Positions 1,781 to 13,768 of a stretch of 13,768 nucleotides of DNA are shown here, piece by piece. The DNA comes from Escherichia coli. GTDB taxonomy: Bacteria; Pseudomonadota; Gammaproteobacteria; Enterobacterales; Enterobacteriaceae. Every line of letters starts with the position of its first letter. The stretch's first letter is position 1. The notes under the pieces are model-generated. The model worked only from the letters and a program-made list of their open reading frames with translations. It was not told the origin of the DNA and searched no databases. The position numbers and the translations under genes were made by a program. The stretch lies in assembly GCF_003334335.1 (NCBI RefSeq), contig NZ_QOWQ01000061.1; one strand, given 5' to 3'.

Positions 1781-2983
1781 ATGGCAGTATTGACGGATAC
1801 GAAAGCAAGACATATCAAACCTGATGACAAACCATTGCCCCATGGGGGAATTACCGGACTGACCCTTCATCCTTCTTCAGTAAAGGGGCGGGGGAAATGG
1901 GTTTTTCGTTATGTAAGTCCGGTGACACAAAAAAGACGTAATGCTGGATTGGGAACTTACCCAGAGGTCAGTATTGCTGAAGCTGCACGTACTGCCCGGA
2001 TAATGCGAGAGCAACTTGCTGCAGGTGATGATCCTCTGGAGATTAAAAAGGCTGAATCTGAGAAAGTCGCTATCCCAACATTTGCCGATGCAGCCAGGCG
2101 TGTACATGCAGAACTGTCTCCTGGATGGGAAAATCCAAAGCATGTAAGGCAGTGGTTATCGACGCTTGAGAATTACGCGTTTCCTCAACTGGGAGCAAAA
2201 ACGCTGGATTCGATTACGGCTGCGGACGTGGCAGAAACACTGCGTCCAGTCTGGTTAACCTTGTCAGAAACGGCAAGCCGGGTTAAACAGCGCATTCATG
2301 TTGTTATGCAGTGGGGATGGGCGCACGGTTTTTGTGTAGCAAATCCTGTTGATGTGGTTGACCATTTGCTTCCTCAGCAGACAAGAGGACGTGATGAACA
2401 CCAACCCGCAATGCCCTGGAGGCAGTTACCGCTTTTTGTGGCGACCAGTGTGTATACCGATGAACCTTATAATGTTACCCGCGCACTGTTATTAATGGTG
2501 ATACTTACAGCAACTCGCTCGGGCGAAGCCAGGGGAATGCGCTGGGCTGAAATTGATTTTCATAAGCGGGTATGGACTATACCTGCAGAAAGAATGAAAG
2601 CTAGGCTACAGCATCGTGTTCCTTTATCCCGGCAGGCTATTTACATTCTGGAAAATATACGTGGCCTGCATGATGAACTGGTGTTCCCTTCACCCAGAAA
2701 GCAGCAGATCCTTTCCGATATGGTGTTGACAAGTTTTCTGCGTAAAAAGAAAGCCGTCAGTGACATTCCGGGGCGAGTTGCCACGGCACATGGTTTTCGC
2801 TCAACATTCAGGGACTGGTGTAGCGAACAGGGGTATTCGCGGGATCTGGCGGAAAGGGCGCTCGCTCATACGCTGAAAAATAAGGTTGAGGCGGCATATC
2901 ATCGTACTGATCTACTGGAGCAGCGTGTACCGATGATGCAGGCATGGGCGGATTATGTGATGTCTCAAATTGTGAATAAATAA
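1781..2983 (+). CDS. int: Tyrosine recombinase, P4-family (CP4-57 IntA-like) integrase
   Basis: 400-aa ORF. N-terminus has the typical P4-type integrase arm-binding region (LTDTKARHIKPDDKP...GKWVFRY...). C-terminus carries the catalytic signature (TRSGEARGMRWAEID, HGFRSTFRDW, catalytic Tyr in AAYHRTD). Family assignment from motif recognition, not a search. Confidence 0.93.
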   Translation: MAVLTDTKARHIKPDDKPLPHGGITGLTLHPSSVKGRGKWVFRYVSPVTQKRRNAGLGTYPEVSIAEAARTARIMREQLAAGDDPLEIKKAESEKVAIPTFADAARRVHAELSPGWENPKHVRQWLSTLENYAFPQLGAKTLDSITAADVAETLRPVWLTLSETASRVKQRIHVVMQWGWAHGFCVANPVDVVDHLLPQQTRGRDEHQPAMPWRQLPLFVATSVYTDEPYNVTRALLLMVILTATRSGEARGMRWAEIDFHKRVWTIPAERMKARLQHRVPLSRQAIYILENIRGLHDELVFPSPRKQQILSDMVLTSFLRKKKAVSDIPGRVATAHGFRSTFRDWCSEQGYSRDLAERALAHTLKNKVEAAYHRTDLLEQRVPMMQAWADYVMSQIVNK

Positions 2984-3169: not shown

Positions 3170-4987
3170 TCACTCCTGCTGAGACTGAATTATTCCTAGT
3201 GCGTCATAAATCAGTCTTCTGCGTAGTTTATTGTTTTTATCTGCACCATATAACATAAATATATTTTCAACTTTTTCTTCAGGTGTTCTGAGATAATGGA
3301 TAAGAAAGGTTATCATTCCAACACAATGGAATAAAGTGAATCCATCAAACAGGCTTATCAGGTTTCCTTTTTTTTCCCGTGTTGTAAGTATTTTTTCGCG
3401 GGTAAGAATATTTGCCAGTTCATGGGGGGCTGATATGTTTCTGCTGTCTATAATGTCATTTATTTTACCAAGGGCTATATCAACTTCCTGTAATAGGTTA
3501 TTTATCATAGCTGAGTGAATGTTATTGGTTTCATGTTCCTGACAGTTTATGAACTTATAAATCATTGAGTTATACAGAAATATTACTCTTCCTAATAAAT
3601 ATGTGTTTGTGTCATTTTGAAGACAGGACTCTGGGTATTCGTGATCCAGTGAAATAAGGTTAATGGACTCGCCCTGATAAGTCATAAAATAATTGATGTC
3701 ATTTAATAATGCTCGGATATTTACATGATTTTTACTGAATTTTATTTTAAATGCTATCTTTAGTATAGCAAACGCGGCAATGATAAATCCAAAAGGTAAT
3801 TTCTCATAGTTCAGTTTATTGATGGTGCGATGAACACTTTCAGTCTTTCCTGAAGTAAGTTGTCTCAAACAGTTAACAAATTCTGTATAGCCATTTAAGA
3901 CATAATGGCATGAAGAATCTTTTAAAGAGTTTTCTATGTTTTGTAATGTGACGCCGTTGTTCAATGTATAAATGTAACCGCCAAAGACAATGTTTTCAAT
4001 CTCAACGACACAATTTATTGTTTTTTGTTCAGGATAAAGATAAATATCAGAAATACTATAGTCTCGTATTGCGTCAATGGCATCCCACGATAATGCACTG
4101 TCAATTTTCAGTGTATAAAATGGTGAGTTCTCATTAGGAAAGTAATATATGTATTTGTTCAGTATATTCATTACATCTATTGGGTTGGTTAAATATAATA
4201 ACTGGCATTCATATTCTGAAACTTCTCTTTCGCTTATCAGCATTTTATATAAAGTTGCCAGGGTGCTTGTTAATGAAGTTCGTCTTTCGAAAGCCAGTAA
4301 TATAGTGAGATAATAACATGCAACCTGAACTTTATCTAAGTCAGAAATTATTTTTTCCTTGTCTTCATTACTTAAATAAAGCAGATGTTTACAGGTTTCT
4401 TTGCATGTGTTGATAGTTGCGATAAGTTTTGTTTTTCCTGGTGTACTGTTTTTGCGAATATTACGAATGAATTCATATACGCCATCAAAGATATCTTTGA
4501 AATGCGCATTCGCTGGCGTGTATCCGGATAAACATAACTTAACGTAATTTCGCAGATATGTCCTTGCAGCATGATATATATCATCCTCATTATCCGGTAT
4601 CTGAGTGAGAAAAGAATGAATATGATAGTAAAATGCCATCTCATTATCCGGGCGATATGTGTTCCTGATGTCGAGTGCGAGAATCATTGGTACAATGTCA
4701 TTAAAATATTTTTGTTTTATTATTTGATGTGTTTTGTCTGTAAAAACAGAATAGTGCATTAGCTTAACATAGAGATCTTCATATCTCCTAAATATAACTT
4801 TTCGTTGTTCTTTACTCAATACTTGTTCTTTATCAATAATGTTTATTAATTCATCAAACATGTCGCCCAGTGAATGTTGATGTGAGGAAAAATTTTTAAT
4901 ATTTCGGATGTCACGGCTATTCTGGTTTTTAGCCAGAACACCAAAACATGAAAAGACATCATACATTATAGTGATAAAATTATACAT
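3170..4987 (-). CDS. Hypothetical protein, 605 aa, no recognisable family; AT-rich orphan cargo gene
   Basis: Long uninterrupted minus-strand ORF. Strong SD (AAGGAGA) 5 nt upstream of the ATG at 4987 (minus-strand sense). Codon usage markedly more AT-rich than int or the 1083-aa gene (by eye). One predicted hydrophobic helix (KLPFGFIIAAFAILKIAFKI). I recognise no catalytic motif. Confidence 0.8.
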   Translation of the reverse strand: MYNFITIMYDVFSCFGVLAKNQNSRDIRNIKNFSSHQHSLGDMFDELINIIDKEQVLSKEQRKVIFRRYEDLYVKLMHYSVFTDKTHQIIKQKYFNDIVPMILALDIRNTYRPDNEMAFYYHIHSFLTQIPDNEDDIYHAARTYLRNYVKLCLSGYTPANAHFKDIFDGVYEFIRNIRKNSTPGKTKLIATINTCKETCKHLLYLSNEDKEKIISDLDKVQVACYYLTILLAFERRTSLTSTLATLYKMLISEREVSEYECQLLYLTNPIDVMNILNKYIYYFPNENSPFYTLKIDSALSWDAIDAIRDYSISDIYLYPEQKTINCVVEIENIVFGGYIYTLNNGVTLQNIENSLKDSSCHYVLNGYTEFVNCLRQLTSGKTESVHRTINKLNYEKLPFGFIIAAFAILKIAFKIKFSKNHVNIRALLNDINYFMTYQGESINLISLDHEYPESCLQNDTNTYLLGRVIFLYNSMIYKFINCQEHETNNIHSAMINNLLQEVDIALGKINDIIDSRNISAPHELANILTREKILTTREKKGNLISLFDGFTLFHCVGMITFLIHYLRTPEEKVENIFMLYGADKNNKLRRRLIYDALGIIQSQQE

Positions 4988-5127: not shown

Positions 5128-5890
5128 GGTGATGCCTTCTGACGATAGATTAATGTTGTATTCTATTGGTATCTGGAGACCATATGGCAACAGTTACAGT
5201 ATATTCTCCCCGCTGTAATTCCTATAAAGTGTACCGTTATGATCACAGCACCTCAGATCATGAGCGTTTCCAGTGCTAATCCTGCAAACGTGTATTTCAA
5301 CTGAATTACATCTACGAAACCCGAAAACCAGGCATTAAAGAGCAAATTGTTGAAATGGTTCATAACGGAGCCGGGGTTCGCGATAGCTCCAGAACGCTGA
5401 AGGTGGATATCAACACCGTCATTCTCACTTTAAAAAACGCTCACCACGTAAAGTAACCATATCTCCAGCCGCCAGTGTCGATGTGGCACTTATCTGTGAA
5501 CTTGATGAACAATGGAGTTTTGTCGAAAACAAAGCTCGTCAGCAGTGGCACTGGTACGCGTATAAGACCAAAGCTGACGGTGTGCTGGCTTACACTTTTG
5601 GTCCTCGCACTGATGAAACATGCCGTGAGTTGCCGGAATTCCTGAAGCCATTCTCCGCAGGCATGATAACCAGAGACAACCGGAGCAGTTATACCAGAGA
5701 AATGCCACAGGATAAGCATCTTGTCGGCAAGATATTTACCCGGCGCATTGAGCGCAACAATCTGACACTTCGTACTCACATCAAACGACCTGCCCGGAAA
5801 ACGATTTGCTTTTTACGCTCCCTGGAAATTCACGAAAAGCCATTGGTTCATTTATCGAAAACACATGTACTACTGACAGGAGTCATTACC
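5128..5890 (+). mobile_element. IS1-family insertion sequence, about 763 bp, probably inactive
   Basis: Left end GGTGATGCC... at 5128 and right end ...GGAGTCATTACC at 5879-5890 match IS1 terminal inverted repeats. Internal insA/insB-like ORFs with the conserved A6C frameshift motif (5432-5438). Element length matches IS1 (768 bp). No clean 9-bp target-site duplication seen. Confidence 0.8.
5184..5456 (+). pseudogene. insA: IS1-family insA with an in-frame premature stop
   Basis: Translation MATVTVYSPRCNSYKVYRYDHSTSDHERFQC*SCKRVFQLNYIYETRKPGIKEQIVEMVHNGAGVRDSSRTLKVDINTVILTLKNAHHVK aligns to IS1 InsA, but an in-frame TAA at 5277-5279 falls inside the zinc-finger region. Confidence 0.75.
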
Positions 5891-6086: not shown

Positions 6087-6395
6087 ATGGGGGATAAAAT
6101 GCCAGATCAATCCGGACACTGCAGGACTCCTTCACGCATCTTACGGATGCCTGAACTGAGCCAATTGTTAGGTATATCTCGTTCGACAATTTACGAAAAA
6201 ATGAATCCGTTATCGAAATACTACGATGCAACCTTCCCCAGGCCGGTACGTCTTGGTAGTGGTTCTGTGGGCTGGCGTTCATCAGCTATTGACGAATGGC
6301 TTACTTTACATACTGTACCTGCCAGATCAGCAGTCAAAGGTGTTAATGACGAAGTGAGACATACGCTTTCTTCAGATATGACCATGAGCAGATAA
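6087..6395 (+). CDS. alpA: AlpA-family (prophage CP4-57 regulatory protein-like) DNA-binding regulator / excisionase-like protein
   Basis: Motifs ILRMPELSQLLGISRSTIYEKMNP and YDATFPRPVRLGSGSVGWRSSAIDEWL match the AlpA helix-turn-helix family. The likely true start is the ATG at 6099, preceded by GGGGGA. Confidence 0.85.
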   Translation: MGDKMPDQSGHCRTPSRILRMPELSQLLGISRSTIYEKMNPLSKYYDATFPRPVRLGSGSVGWRSSAIDEWLTLHTVPARSAVKGVNDEVRHTLSSDMTMSR

Positions 6396-6957: not shown

Positions 6958-7310
6958 GTCTGAATAGCAGCTATTTTCGCTATTGTAGCGGGATTTGCTG
7001 CTATTTTACTAACCCATTAATGAAAAGAGAGGCTTTTATGTGCTTACTTGCACCAGAAAATCCTTATCCGATATATGCACTACCACCGCTGGTGAGAAAT
7101 GCAATAATTGAAACTCAAAAAAATACACAGGCACCTTTGGCTATGGTGGCAACATCCGCATTAACAGCGATCTCAATTGCCTGTCAGAATCAGATTGACG
7201 TATGCAGACCTGGAAATTTACATGGGCCTGTTAATCTTTACTCTCTGATTCTGGCTGATTCCGGTGAAAGGAAAACGACCGTGGATAAAGTGTTTATGAA
7301 AGCATTTTAT
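6958..7310 (+). repeat. Direct repeat copy 2: the intact promoter-proximal and 5' region of the yfjI-like gene
   Basis: Partner of copy 1 at 6478-6830; this copy is continuous with the long ORF starting at 7020/7038. Confidence 0.7.
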
Positions 7311-8177
7311 CTCAGGGATGAAGCCCTGGCGGAAGAATACGCGAAACTGGTTGAGAATTACAGTACAGAAAAGGAAATATGGGAGCAAAAACAAAAAGCG
7401 CTGGAATCAAAATTTCATAAAGAGATTCGTGCCGGTAAAGATTACAAGGCAACAGAATCAGAGCTTGAAACGCATCTGAATAAACCTCCTGTTCCGCCGC
7501 AGATACGTCGAACAATTTTTAATGAGACAACGATAGAGGGAATGTTAAAATATTACTCCGATAGCAATCGCTCTTTTGCTCTTGTATCCAGTGAAGGGGG
7601 GGTAATTTTTGACAGCCGGGCCATGAGTAAACTGGGAATTATTAACACTTTGTGGGATGGAGGTTCTCTTTTCATCGACAGGAAATCATCTCCCGGAATT
7701 AATTTGAAGGAGCCAAGACTGACGATATCGGTGATGATTCAGCCTGATGTTTACCACAAAGGTTTTTGTACGCGAAAAAAAGAAATTGTGAAAACGTCAG
7801 GACATCATGCAAGGTTTTTGATGTGTCAACCAACATCAACGCAGGGGACAAGGATAATAACCGGAGATAATTATTCATCACAGTATCAGGATTTGTTTGA
7901 AGAGAGGATCAATGAGCTTATTGATGAAAGTCTGGCGATGAGTGGTGAACGACGTTGCCTTCACTTTTCTCCTCAGGCTGCCAGAATCTGGACGGATTAT
8001 TACAATGATGTGGAATCGAAGCTGGGGGGATTGGGGCCTTTAAGACATTGCCGGGAATATGCTGCTAAAAATGCAGAGTATATGGCAAGACTGGCAGGAC
8101 TTATTTACCATTCGAGCGGGGGAGATTTCCCCTTACACTGCAGAAATGGCGAGAGAATTAGCAATATGGTACGGTAA
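7020..8177 (+). CDS. yfjI-like (DUF3987-type, putative replication-associated) protein, N-terminal 385 aa; frame interrupted near the 3' end
   Basis: Long ORF in the position occupied by yfjI after alpA in CP4-57-type islands. SD-like AAGAGAGG precedes the internal ATG at 7038, the more likely start. The reading frame continues in another frame (8059-8463) after a G5 tract. DUF3987 assignment is from genomic context and memory, not a search. Confidence 0.7.
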   Translation: MKREAFMCLLAPENPYPIYALPPLVRNAIIETQKNTQAPLAMVATSALTAISIACQNQIDVCRPGNLHGPVNLYSLILADSGERKTTVDKVFMKAFYLRDEALAEEYAKLVENYSTEKEIWEQKQKALESKFHKEIRAGKDYKATESELETHLNKPPVPPQIRRTIFNETTIEGMLKYYSDSNRSFALVSSEGGVIFDSRAMSKLGIINTLWDGGSLFIDRKSSPGINLKEPRLTISVMIQPDVYHKGFCTRKKEIVKTSGHHARFLMCQPTSTQGTRIITGDNYSSQYQDLFEERINELIDESLAMSGERRCLHFSPQAARIWTDYYNDVESKLGGLGPLRHCREYAAKNAEYMARLAGLIYHSSGGDFPLHCRNGERISNMVR

Positions 8178-8463
8178 TGAGTATGTGCGGTTGTCTAATC
8201 CGTTAACTTTTGACAACTCTGCCCTGACCGTACCTGTGCGACTCATTCCAGAGGAGCTTGAACTTTTCAACTGGATAAAAAGCTATTGTATTGAGAAGGG
8301 GATCCTCTGTATGAAAAAAAATGACATTTTACAGCGTGGTCCGAACCGTTTCCGGAAAAAGGATAAAATCAACTGGTTACTGGATTTACTGTATGAACAA
8401 AACAGAGTTGTACCGGTTATTGAGGGAAAAACGTTGTGTGTCGCACCTAACTTTGACCTCTGA
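8059..8463 (+). CDS. C-terminal segment of the yfjI-like protein in a shifted frame
   Basis: Overlaps the previous ORF by 119 nt in a different frame; no independent RBS. Combined length (about 480 aa) is what I expect for a yfjI-family protein. Confidence 0.55.
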   Translation: MLLKMQSIWQDWQDLFTIRAGEISPYTAEMARELAIWYGNEYVRLSNPLTFDNSALTVPVRLIPEELELFNWIKSYCIEKGILCMKKNDILQRGPNRFRKKDKINWLLDLLYEQNRVVPVIEGKTLCVAPNFDL

Positions 8464-8486
8464 ACGACTTAATCGTTGAGTTCATA

Positions 8487-8517
8487 TAGTCTCCTCTGCT
8501 ACTTGCGGAGGAGACTA
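8487..8517 (+). terminator. Perfect 10-bp stem-loop immediately downstream of the yfjI-like gene; possible terminator or protein-binding hairpin
   Basis: TAGTCTCCTC (8487-8496) pairs with GAGGAGACTA (8508-8517), 11-nt loop. Downstream sequence is only moderately T-rich, so it is not a canonical intrinsic terminator. Confidence 0.35.
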
Positions 8518-8518
8518 A

Positions 8519-9283
8519 TGTCTTTACCATGTCAGCGTTGTATTAGAAAACTCTGGTACAGGTCAGTCAGTAAATATAACTGGTGTAACCACTATTTACT
8601 ATTGGATAGAGTGTTGCTCAGGATATTGTCGGCTTTAGTCTGAGGTGAGGTGGGGCCTTCATTGTTTTCGTGTTCAATAAATAATTTAGGTTAATTAGTA
8701 TTATTAGTGGAAGTTATGTGATCTGTTATGTTGTCTTGTACGCACTTAACACTGGTTACGTACCGGAACACTATTAGAGTATGTTATGGCTCTGTTACAG
8801 TTTATAGGTATGAAAAAATATAATCTTTCCTGTATGAAATAATATTCTTATGGTGTGTGGGGTATGGTCTGTATACCATCATTTTTATGGTGAAGTTAAA
8901 TATCTGTAGAGGCCTTAAGCTGGGTCGCTGTTTTTACTTAATGGTACAGAAGTATTAATAGCGGTGTTGCCTGTGGCTACCCGATACTGGCTTTTGTGAA
9001 TGTCAGATTACTTCCTGTAAGTGATTGAATGGTACTTCCTTAAACTCAATTCTATGAGGTGTGTTTTTACCATTGTAATTCGTACTGGTCCTCAGTTTAA
9101 GTGAGTCTTACTGTACTCTGAAATATTACCTCTTTGGAGTAATGAGGTAATACGAAACAGTTTTATCAGGTTGTCTGTGCTGCTGGTTACCTCGTTTATT
9201 AATGCCGCGGTACGGCGTTTCTGTACTCTCAGTATTTATGTAATTCCACCTTCCTGTAACTTTTATAAAGTAAGGACTATAAA
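8519..9283. other. ORF-free AT-rich region with short repeated motifs and hairpins; candidate replication origin / regulatory region
   Basis: No ORF of 60 aa or more in any frame across about 820 bp. Repeated TTCCTGTA (8826, 9012, 9250), CTGTACTCT (9111, 9221), TGTTATG (8715, 8725, 8782). Inverted repeat TATTACCTC/GAGGTAATA (9124-9151). Sits directly upstream of the HUH Rep-like gene. Confidence 0.3.
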
Positions 9284-9847
9284 ATGTATAATGCTAATCC
9301 CAATTACGAAATGGACTTCATGATTCTGAAAGACGTGAATGAACACATGGAAGGTCTGTTTCAACGTTTTTCTAAACTGTTACCTTTCAGAATTGATTTT
9401 GCCTACAGGAAAGACACGCCCAGTTTTGGTCATTCCTGTAGGCACAGTATGTGTATTGAAATGCACCGCTTACTTAGTGAAACCCAAACGATGCTGGCGG
9501 GATATTACTGGGTAATGGAATATACGTCAAACAAGGGACTTCATATTCATTTTATCGGCTACTTGGATGGGCAACGTCACAAGAAATTTTATCGGATATC
9601 CAGGCAACTGGGAGATATCTGGAGTCGGATCACGGAAGGGGAGGGTTATTTTCACCTGTGCAGTACTAAAGACAAATACCCGGTGCGTATCGATCACGTG
9701 ATTCACTATAGTGATAAGTCTGCGGTAGACGGTTTACGTTACGCCCTTAGCTACCTGGCTAAACAGGAGCAGAAAGAACACGGTATTATTCTGATGCGTA
9801 GCAGACTTCCCGAAAAAAGTAACCGCGGCCGACCACGACACAACTGA
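9284..9847 (+). CDS. YagK/YfjJ (inovirus Gp2)-family protein with HUH-type motifs; putative rolling-circle Rep-like initiator
   Basis: 187-aa ORF with an HUH-like motif LHIHFIGY and a downstream tyrosine motif YALSYLAK (YxxK-like). Occupies the position of yfjJ in CP4-57-like islands. Shorter than I would expect for this family. Confidence 0.65.
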   Translation: MYNANPNYEMDFMILKDVNEHMEGLFQRFSKLLPFRIDFAYRKDTPSFGHSCRHSMCIEMHRLLSETQTMLAGYYWVMEYTSNKGLHIHFIGYLDGQRHKKFYRISRQLGDIWSRITEGEGYFHLCSTKDKYPVRIDHVIHYSDKSAVDGLRYALSYLAKQEQKEHGIILMRSRLPEKSNRGRPRHN

Positions 9848-10355
9848 ATTACAGCTGTATTAGAATTAAGTTTCCGTAAGTTGTTGGGAGGTGCTTGAGT
9901 TAATAGGCAGTAGAGGGGGCGCTGTAATCAGTGTAGGGGACCCGAATTTCTGCTGTGGTGCTTCAGTGGTTCGGATACAGGTAACGAATATGGTTCATAA
10001 ATCTGACAGTGATGAATTAGCAGCACTGAGGGAAGACATCACTTGAAGCTTATGGGATTGAATGGCGACGTAAACCGCAGAGTCCTGTGCAGTGCGTTTC
10101 CGTATTATCCACGGATGAGAAAGTTGCGTTATTTCGTCGGTTTTTTCGTGGGCGTGGTGATGTATGGGGCCTTCGATGGGAAAGCAAAACCAGCGGCAAA
10201 TCAGGGTACTTGCGGGCCTGTGCTAACGAATGGCAGCCGGGAATAGCGGTAAACTCCGGATAAAATGTGGGGACTGCGCTCACCGTCAGTTGATCCCTGT
10301 ATCTGATCTCATCATCTACCACTACACGGTTTAACGGGGCCGCGTCATCTCGGCG

Positions 10356-10385
10356 TTGCCCGATAAATTCTTTTCTACGTATAAT
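10356..10385 (+). promoter_or_regulatory. Candidate sigma70-like promoter for the 1083-aa gene
   Basis: -35-like TTGCCC (10356-10361), 18-bp spacer, perfect -10 TATAAT (10380-10385), about 110 bp upstream of the start codon. Sequence match only. Confidence 0.3.
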
Positions 10386-10497
10386 AACCAGAATGAACGT
10401 GTAAAACACCATAGTATTCAGAACTATAAACATCGAAACTTGCCATATTGACCAGAATAAATGACCTTATTTTTACTGAAATTTAAGGAGAACACCG

Positions 10498-13768
<3,271 letters not shown>

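Follow-up and report, generated by a model that had tools for sequence, protein, structure and literature searches.

A predicted HUH-class protein in the backbone of an Escherichia coli island and a conserved AT-rich element upstream of its gene

The gp2-like gene and its predicted fold

We analyzed a stretch of 13,768 nucleotides (nt) from Escherichia coli (contig NZ_QOWQ01000061.1 of assembly GCF_003334335.1), referred to here as the window, with attention to a gene at positions 9284-9847 that sits in the conserved backbone of an integrase-bearing island, directly before its variable cargo. The 187-amino-acid (aa) product of this gene, hereafter gp2-like, belongs to the group variously named YagK/YfjJ, 'inovirus-type Gp2', or REP_ORF2-G2P and, as far as computation shows, is a predicted HUH protein of the Rep class. 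We regard the protein as complete with near certainty, and an AT-rich element, conserved and about 22 nt long, that lies 5' of the gene as a candidate site of its action. Coordinates of these and neighboring features are collected in Table 1.

The gene itself is an ordinary representative of a known family and already carries an annotation. The interval 9000-10500 is 99.8% identical to the genome of E. coli O111:H21 strain 15A, where the corresponding gene of 564 nt appears in RefSeq as intact under the name 'inovirus-type Gp2 protein' (WP_000282077.1), its product being equal in length to the window protein and separated from it by a single residue change (E162D). Of 5,426 complete E. coli genomes, 2,192 contain similar DNA. 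The ATG is preceded at a distance of 7 nt by AAGGA (9272-9276), and low ratios of nonsynonymous to synonymous substitution rates (0.21 in comparison with the O157 copy, 0.19 with that of Escherichia albertii) indicate that the gene is under purifying selection. The orthologue of E. albertii NBRC 107761 (locus L014, 4753-5313, minus strand; 89% identity) has an internal stop at codon 59 and is thus a pseudogene in that strain; the protein database also holds many family fragments of 103 to 145 aa.

A first-pass annotation of the window had recognized HUH and YxxK-like motifs in LHIHFIGY (aa 86-93; 9539-9562) and YALSYLAK (aa 153-160), and this reading holds. H87, H89, Y157, and K160 are invariant in both sequence sets used to assess conservation, namely, 25 subfamily members and 60 relatives, both short and long, with identities of 25-51%. 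Residues invariant across the larger set further include E79, R36, D38, G73, W113, G182, and R185, whereas R183 and P184 are at least 90% conserved whether the form is short or long, and Y153 reaches that level in the subfamily only. The AlphaFold2 model is confident (predicted local distance difference test score [pLDDT], 89.3; predicted template modeling score, 0.85) and places the motifs at the catalytic positions of HUH proteins, with HxH on a central β-strand (residues 85-95) and YxxK farther toward the C terminus, on a helix (residues 145-159, carrying Y157). E79 and HxH on neighboring strands together with YxxK on a helix is the Rep-class arrangement. In the model, strand 73-81 runs adjacent to the HxH strand and carries the invariant E79, a third candidate metal ligand. 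The last residues fall to a mean pLDDT of 57. AT-hooks consist of an R-G-R-P core with basic flanks in a disordered segment, and the terminal RGRPR fits this pattern, as a pattern match only and with no Pfam AT_hook match reported.

Comparisons of the model with known and predicted structures point the same way. Within the PDB, Foldseek ranks the Rep nuclease of adeno-associated virus 5 first; among predicted viral structures, the best match is an 'Inovirus Gp2' protein (E value, 1.8e-8; TM score, 0.67), followed by parvovirus NS1 and microvirus initiators. It is the combination of invariant HxH and YxxK motifs with Rep/NS1 nucleases as best fold matches that underlies the HUH assignment. The best Pfam match of the window protein, PF23343 (REP_ORF2-G2P), spans the region of E79 and the HUH motif, but it is short (aa 71-118 only) and weak (independent E value, 0.0012). 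Weak as well is the match to PF11726 (YagK_YfjJ_C, formerly Inovirus_Gp2 or DUF3296; E value, 0.28), a family named for K-12 YfjJ and YagK of the islands CP4-57 and CP4-6. At an E value of 0.001 or less, these two families are detected in 22 and 9 of the 25 orthologues, respectively, and neither NCBIfam nor PADLOC matches the 187-aa protein. As a caveat, profiles built from the 25 and from the 60 sequences found no link to solved structures, with no Rep or other meaningful match.

Completeness of the protein and the DNA downstream

At 187 aa the protein had appeared short for its family, and it was proposed to be a truncated initiator followed by its own decayed remainder. It is short beside relatives of 340-400 aa, whose extra part is N-terminal, but not beside the stand-alone subfamily (183-201 aa) or the 208-aa YfjJ of K-12. 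A search of 5.8 billion proteins recovered relatives with a full length of 183-201 aa that cover 95-100% of the query; the genera represented are Escherichia, Salmonella, Erwinia, Citrobacter, Yersinia, Limnobaculum, Orbus, and Rouxiella. These proteins align end to end, and in all of them an invariant RGRPR lies just a few residues short of the stop codon. About 190 aa is, in other words, the full length of stand-alone members. The window protein has the same terminal motif, and nothing is missing from its C terminus.

Among 1.84 billion representative proteins, a profile search picked out 2,579 relatives in two architectures, one stand-alone (about 185-215 aa) and one of 340-400 aa with the whole domain in the C-terminal half. 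GRPR follows the domain at or near the protein end in eight of nine relatives that were read, seven of the nine being longer than 340 aa; hence, the extra part of the long forms lies N-terminally. Two relatives, P0213 (799 aa), in which GRPR is followed by a P-loop ATPase-like region, and P0117 (434 aa), with a long C-terminal extension, indicate that the domain is found in larger architectures too.

Truncation would account for the greater length of classical inovirus gpII and of many relatives (340-400 aa), as well as for the gene-poor DNA downstream with its frameshifted coding remnants. Orthologue lengths, end-to-end alignment, the terminal RGRPR, and the N-terminal position of the extra domain in long forms all speak against it. 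Translation of 9848-10497 in six frames revealed no similarity to the family, with negative scores throughout for two family profiles, as was also the case for 8464-9283; the gene itself scores 281 bits. Nor did we find an orthologue with conserved C-terminal sequence beyond RGRPR that matches 9848-10497. This DNA instead resembles a different gene, and we reject the decayed-remainder reading as having next to no chance of being correct.

That no intact gene lies in the roughly 650 base pairs (bp) downstream was correctly noted at first pass, but this DNA does hold a recognizable pseudogene fragment. Similarity to the PrimPol-helicase region of O157:H7 runs from the gp2-like stop codon to 10322 and then ends. 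The same island in O157:H7 has the PrimPol-helicase gene intact (786 aa; locus L002, 7139-9499), beginning 155 nt past the gp2-like stop codon and encoding a fusion of a PrimPol domain with an SF2 helicase. Relative to it, the window has lost 17 bp at 10037/10038 and 1 bp at 10245/10246; with the frame repaired, the translation matches residues 1-118 of the intact protein at 78% identity (E value, 2e-61). In strain 15A, RefSeq names the equivalent of 9990-10325 'TOTE conflict system archaeo-eukaryotic primase domain-containing protein' and marks it as a frameshifted piece from the 5' end of the gene. Judged by its sequence, 9990-10322 is thus a pseudogene stump with two frameshifting deletions and about 85% of the gene lost. 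Our literature searches turned up no papers for 'TOTE conflict system' and only passing mentions of the function of YfjJ, YagK, or DUF3296.

About 190 bp past the end of this homology starts mkoA, a gene of Mokosh type I defense. Its homology to the 1,652-aa gene of strain 15A ends at 13692, and the early stop codon (13747-13749) implies truncation or rearrangement at the end of the window. The alignments depict one cargo gene cut to a 5' stump where another cargo now begins, which makes the locus a clear case of cargo turnover just downstream of an island backbone.

The upstream element and the island around it

Alignment of the regions 5' of diverged orthologues disclosed a single conserved block of about 22-25 nt, ATTWAGGTTAATTARTATTATTA, represented in the window by TAATTTAGGTTAATTAGTATTATTA and often followed a few bases 3' by GAAGT. 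In every stand-alone locus examined, the element lies on the same strand as the gene, 100 to 936 nt 5' of it; three of these loci have a one-base-shorter form, and variants include GGTTAATTA and GGTTATTA. When one genome from each of 100,044 species was scanned for the exact pattern, only six matches emerged (E. albertii, Edaphovirga, two Gilliamella, and two Dechloromonas), and all five that could be evaluated have a gp2-like open reading frame (ORF) 100-565 nt downstream, the sixth being cut off. The Dechloromonas DNA matches the element exactly, with a protein only about 30% identical to that of the window. The element is absent 5' of K-12 yfjJ and of one long-form relative that was checked.

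The core of the element, TAGTATTAT, resembles the nonanucleotide of circoviruses and nanoviruses. However, no conserved hairpin forms there, the single-stranded DNA folding no better than shuffled sequence, and a stem-loop origin of the kind found in CRESS (circular Rep-encoding single-stranded DNA) viruses was therefore dropped. A promoter at the element was also rejected, as its plus strand has no sigma-70 consensus. Terminator-like hairpins lie between the element and the gp2-like gene in E. coli.

The start of the gene is also surrounded by an octamer, TTCCTGTA, of which the window holds six copies against 0.38 expected, five of them within 8827-9440; two copies form an inverted repeat with 16-nt arms inside the coding sequence (9400-9444). 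O157 has this cluster unchanged and E. albertii has part of it, but other genera lack it, and the octamers were not retained as conserved iterons.

Upstream of the gp2-like gene, the window reads integrase, a 605-aa ORF on the minus strand, an IS1 remnant, a helix-turn-helix (HTH) regulator, and a YfjI/DUF3987 gene, with cargo following; the order in CP4-57 of K-12 is alike (intA, yfjH, alpA, yfjI, yfjJ, cargo). The yfjI-like gene is split here into ORFs of 385 and 134 aa and is intact in strain 15A (477 aa), and the 605-aa ORF has no match in NCBIfam or PADLOC. Despite the integrase at 1781, Rfam and tRNA scans of the window returned neither a tRNA gene nor an Rfam family at gathering score. 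Strain 15A has two RefSeq 'RtT sRNA' repeats just 5' of its integrase (locus L001, 2239-2556; compare 1415-1780 here), and the window apparently has one repeat unit fewer, with 1546-1620 matching two places in that strain.

Related surroundings recur well beyond E. coli. An AlpA gene adjoins the gp2-like gene or lies within about 1.5 kilobases (kb) of it in Erwinia, Yersinia, Citrobacter, Orbus, Limnobaculum, and metagenomic contigs, and a P4-type integrase is in view at the Citrobacter freundii and Orbus loci. The flanking genes include typical CP4-like ones (DUF932, RadC, CbtA/CbeA, and a YfjP-like GTPase) in Erwinia, Yersinia, Limnobaculum, and Citrobacter braakii, and restriction-type cargo lies 3' of the gp2-like gene in Erwinia and C. 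freundii.

Table 1. Features of the window and positions of the conserved element in other loci (L numbers denote loci used for comparison)
Feature	Position	Strand	Basis or remark
Tyrosine integrase of the island (backbone)	1781-2983	+	RefSeq annotation of matching region
605-aa ORF between integrase and IS1 remnant	3170-4987	-	'Hypothetical protein' WP_000282209.1 in strain 15A and O157
Frameshifted IS1 transposase remnant in island backbone	~5185-5876		RefSeq annotation of matching strain 15A/O157 region
HTH regulator in CP4-57 alpA position (backbone)	6087-6395	+	PGAP: 'helix-turn-helix transcriptional regulator' only
YfjI-family (DUF3987) backbone gene, frameshifted	7020-8463	+	8-bp deletion at 8118
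Conserved noncoding element TAATTTAGGTTAATTAGTATTATTA (consensus ATTWAGGTTAATTARTATTATTA), candidate binding/nicking site	8682-8706	+	578 nt 5' of ATG
Octamer TTCCTGTA, copies near gp2-like gene start	8827; 9012; 9251; 9404; 9433	+; +; +; -; +	
Complete coding sequence of predicted stand-alone HUH (Rep-type) protein, 187 aa	9284-9847	+	ATG start; stop TGA 9845-9847
Putative metal-binding E79 (9518-9520), H87 (9542-9544), and H89 (9548-9550), HUH motif	9518-9550	+	Invariant in both sets; two adjacent predicted β-strands
YALSYLAK; YxxK with Y157 (9752-9754, putative catalytic tyrosine) and K160 (9761-9763)	9740-9763	+	Invariant in 60 sequences
C-terminal RGRPR (aa 181-185), AT-hook-like, low-confidence tail, natural end of family	9824-9838	+	Invariant in subfamily
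Intergenic spacer, gp2-like gene to PrimPol-helicase gene	9848-9989		Aligns with O157:H7 spacer except two gaps (7 and 5 bp)
Pseudogene stump, codons 1 to ~118 of 786-aa 'TOTE conflict system' archaeo-eukaryotic primase/PrimPol and SF2 helicase gene	9990-10322	+	DNA alignment
Leader of replacement cargo, unrelated to O157 sequence	10323-10509		Alignment; promoter-like site at 10356-10385
Cargo gene mkoA, Mokosh type I defense	10510-13749	+	PADLOC MkoA 1218 bits; NCBIfam PglW/MAD6-like kinase
Conserved element elsewhere	L005 7844-7868; L007 7844-7868; L009 7041-7065; L010 7787-7811; L012 7728-7752; also L014-L019		

Possible roles of the protein and comparison with known systems

The invariant AT-hook-like tail, the invariant catalytic set, and the near-invariant AT-rich element together suggest a cognate pair of protein and site. 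The protein would recognize the element upstream of its own gene, with the AT-hook binding its minor groove and the HUH domain contacting bases. One strand would then be cut by Y157 with the help of a metal ion held by E79, H87, and H89, leaving a 5'-phosphotyrosine link. Once excised, the island would then replicate from this nick in rolling-circle fashion or be transferred as a single strand. As a joint explanation, a complete HUH protein that nicks at the conserved element is the account toward which we lean slightly, a grading that is itself a compromise; nicking at this particular 22-nt site, taken as a mechanism by itself, is a serious candidate that falls somewhat short of probable. More tentative still is the broader proposal that protein and element form a portable initiator-origin (or nickase-oriT [origin of transfer]) cassette of integrase/AlpA defense islands across Gamma- and Betaproteobacteria, through which these islands, once excised, could replicate or be passed on in single-stranded form.

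The principal competitor, although unlikely, is that the HUH-fold protein acts mainly as a sequence-specific DNA-binding island regulator, for instance an autorepressor or activator of a gp2-alpA unit, with no role in replication, and that the element is its operator or that of another factor. Such a role would suit an element that is always 5' of the gene on the same strand and forms no hairpin, and alpA lies directly 3' of the gene in several loci, which suggests one transcription unit; furthermore, no autonomous replicon in phage and plasmid records relies on the family. Nevertheless, strict invariance of the tyrosine, the lysine, both histidines, and the glutamate at 25-51% identity is unexpected for a pure DNA binder; the variable distance between element and ATG (about 100 to 936 nt), with terminator-like hairpins intervening in E. 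coli, and the missing sigma-70 consensus on the plus strand also speak against this reading. A relaxase-like nickase, somewhat less likely again, would have the element as oriT, with the excised island mobilized by a coresident conjugative element or its DNA processed for phage-mediated transfer. The HUH motif precedes the tyrosine in the window protein, and this is the order of the Rep class, not that of classical relaxases; moreover, the loci examined have no coupling-protein or mating-pair genes, and the single MobI match, in one member, is not significant (E value, 0.016). These islands are nonetheless widespread without transfer genes of their own, and related Pseudomonas islands spread by jumbo-phage transduction (PMC12595487).

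A further reading, which we hold to be very improbable, makes the gp2-like protein a component of the adjacent defense cargo, partnering the TOTE PrimPol-helicase, and not a product of the backbone. The short distance to the intact PrimPol-helicase gene on the same strand in O157:H7 would favor such a partnership. Yet this window and many other E. coli genomes combine an intact gp2-like gene with a decayed PrimPol gene, the Erwinia, Yersinia, Citrobacter, Orbus, and Limnobaculum copies of the gp2-like gene have no PrimPol neighbor, and PADLOC does not match the protein. This wide occurrence without the PrimPol gene is what makes cargo membership unlikely.

The conserved element and the AT-hook are a modest new lead on a gene that was already annotated. 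Combined with the invariant catalytic residues, they offer a concrete hypothesis on how common defense-carrying islands replicate or move. Were the cassette proposal true, it would assign a function to a long-uncharacterized core gene family that includes relatives of K-12 yfjJ and yagK.

Despite the family label, the protein does not fit the known initiators of phages or small plasmids. Filamentous-phage (inovirus) gpII initiators have about 400 aa and are encoded in inovirus genomes. The window protein is less than half that length, and a tblastn search of 50,697 phage records found no inovirus homologue, returning two weak matches, both in one Acinetobacter phage; we therefore read 'inovirus-type' as a label, not as a statement of origin, and reject an inovirus gpII initiator. 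A rolling-circle Rep of small plasmids was likewise set aside: the family is rare on plasmids (106 of 72,556 records), all those listed in a 30-row sample are about 30 kb or larger, and a weak Rep_1 match appears in just one of the 25 orthologues. SIRV1 ORF119, adeno-associated virus Rep, parvovirus NS1, and nanovirus/circovirus Rep are only 9-16% identical to the window protein, which amounts to no sequence-level relationship. Relative to solved Rep nucleases, the protein lacks a fused SF3 helicase, adds a C-terminal AT-hook-like tail, and has no stem-loop at its candidate site.

The closest parallels come from other islands. In Pseudomonas, integrase-bearing defense islands integrated at the tmRNA gene carry a Gp2-like gene beside alpA, which the authors count among likely core functions (PNAS 2025, PMC12595487); genus and integration site differ from those of the window, and the likeness is one of description. 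YfjJ of K-12 CP4-57 is, like the window protein, small and stand-alone and shares its HxH (HYHLI) and YxxK (YMTK) motifs. It lacks the terminal RGRPR, CP4-57 lacks the 22-nt element, and the BLAST alignment between the two proteins is limited to the HUH segment, but yfjJ occupies the same backbone slot as the gp2-like gene, in the order int, alpA, yfjI, yfjJ, and cargo.
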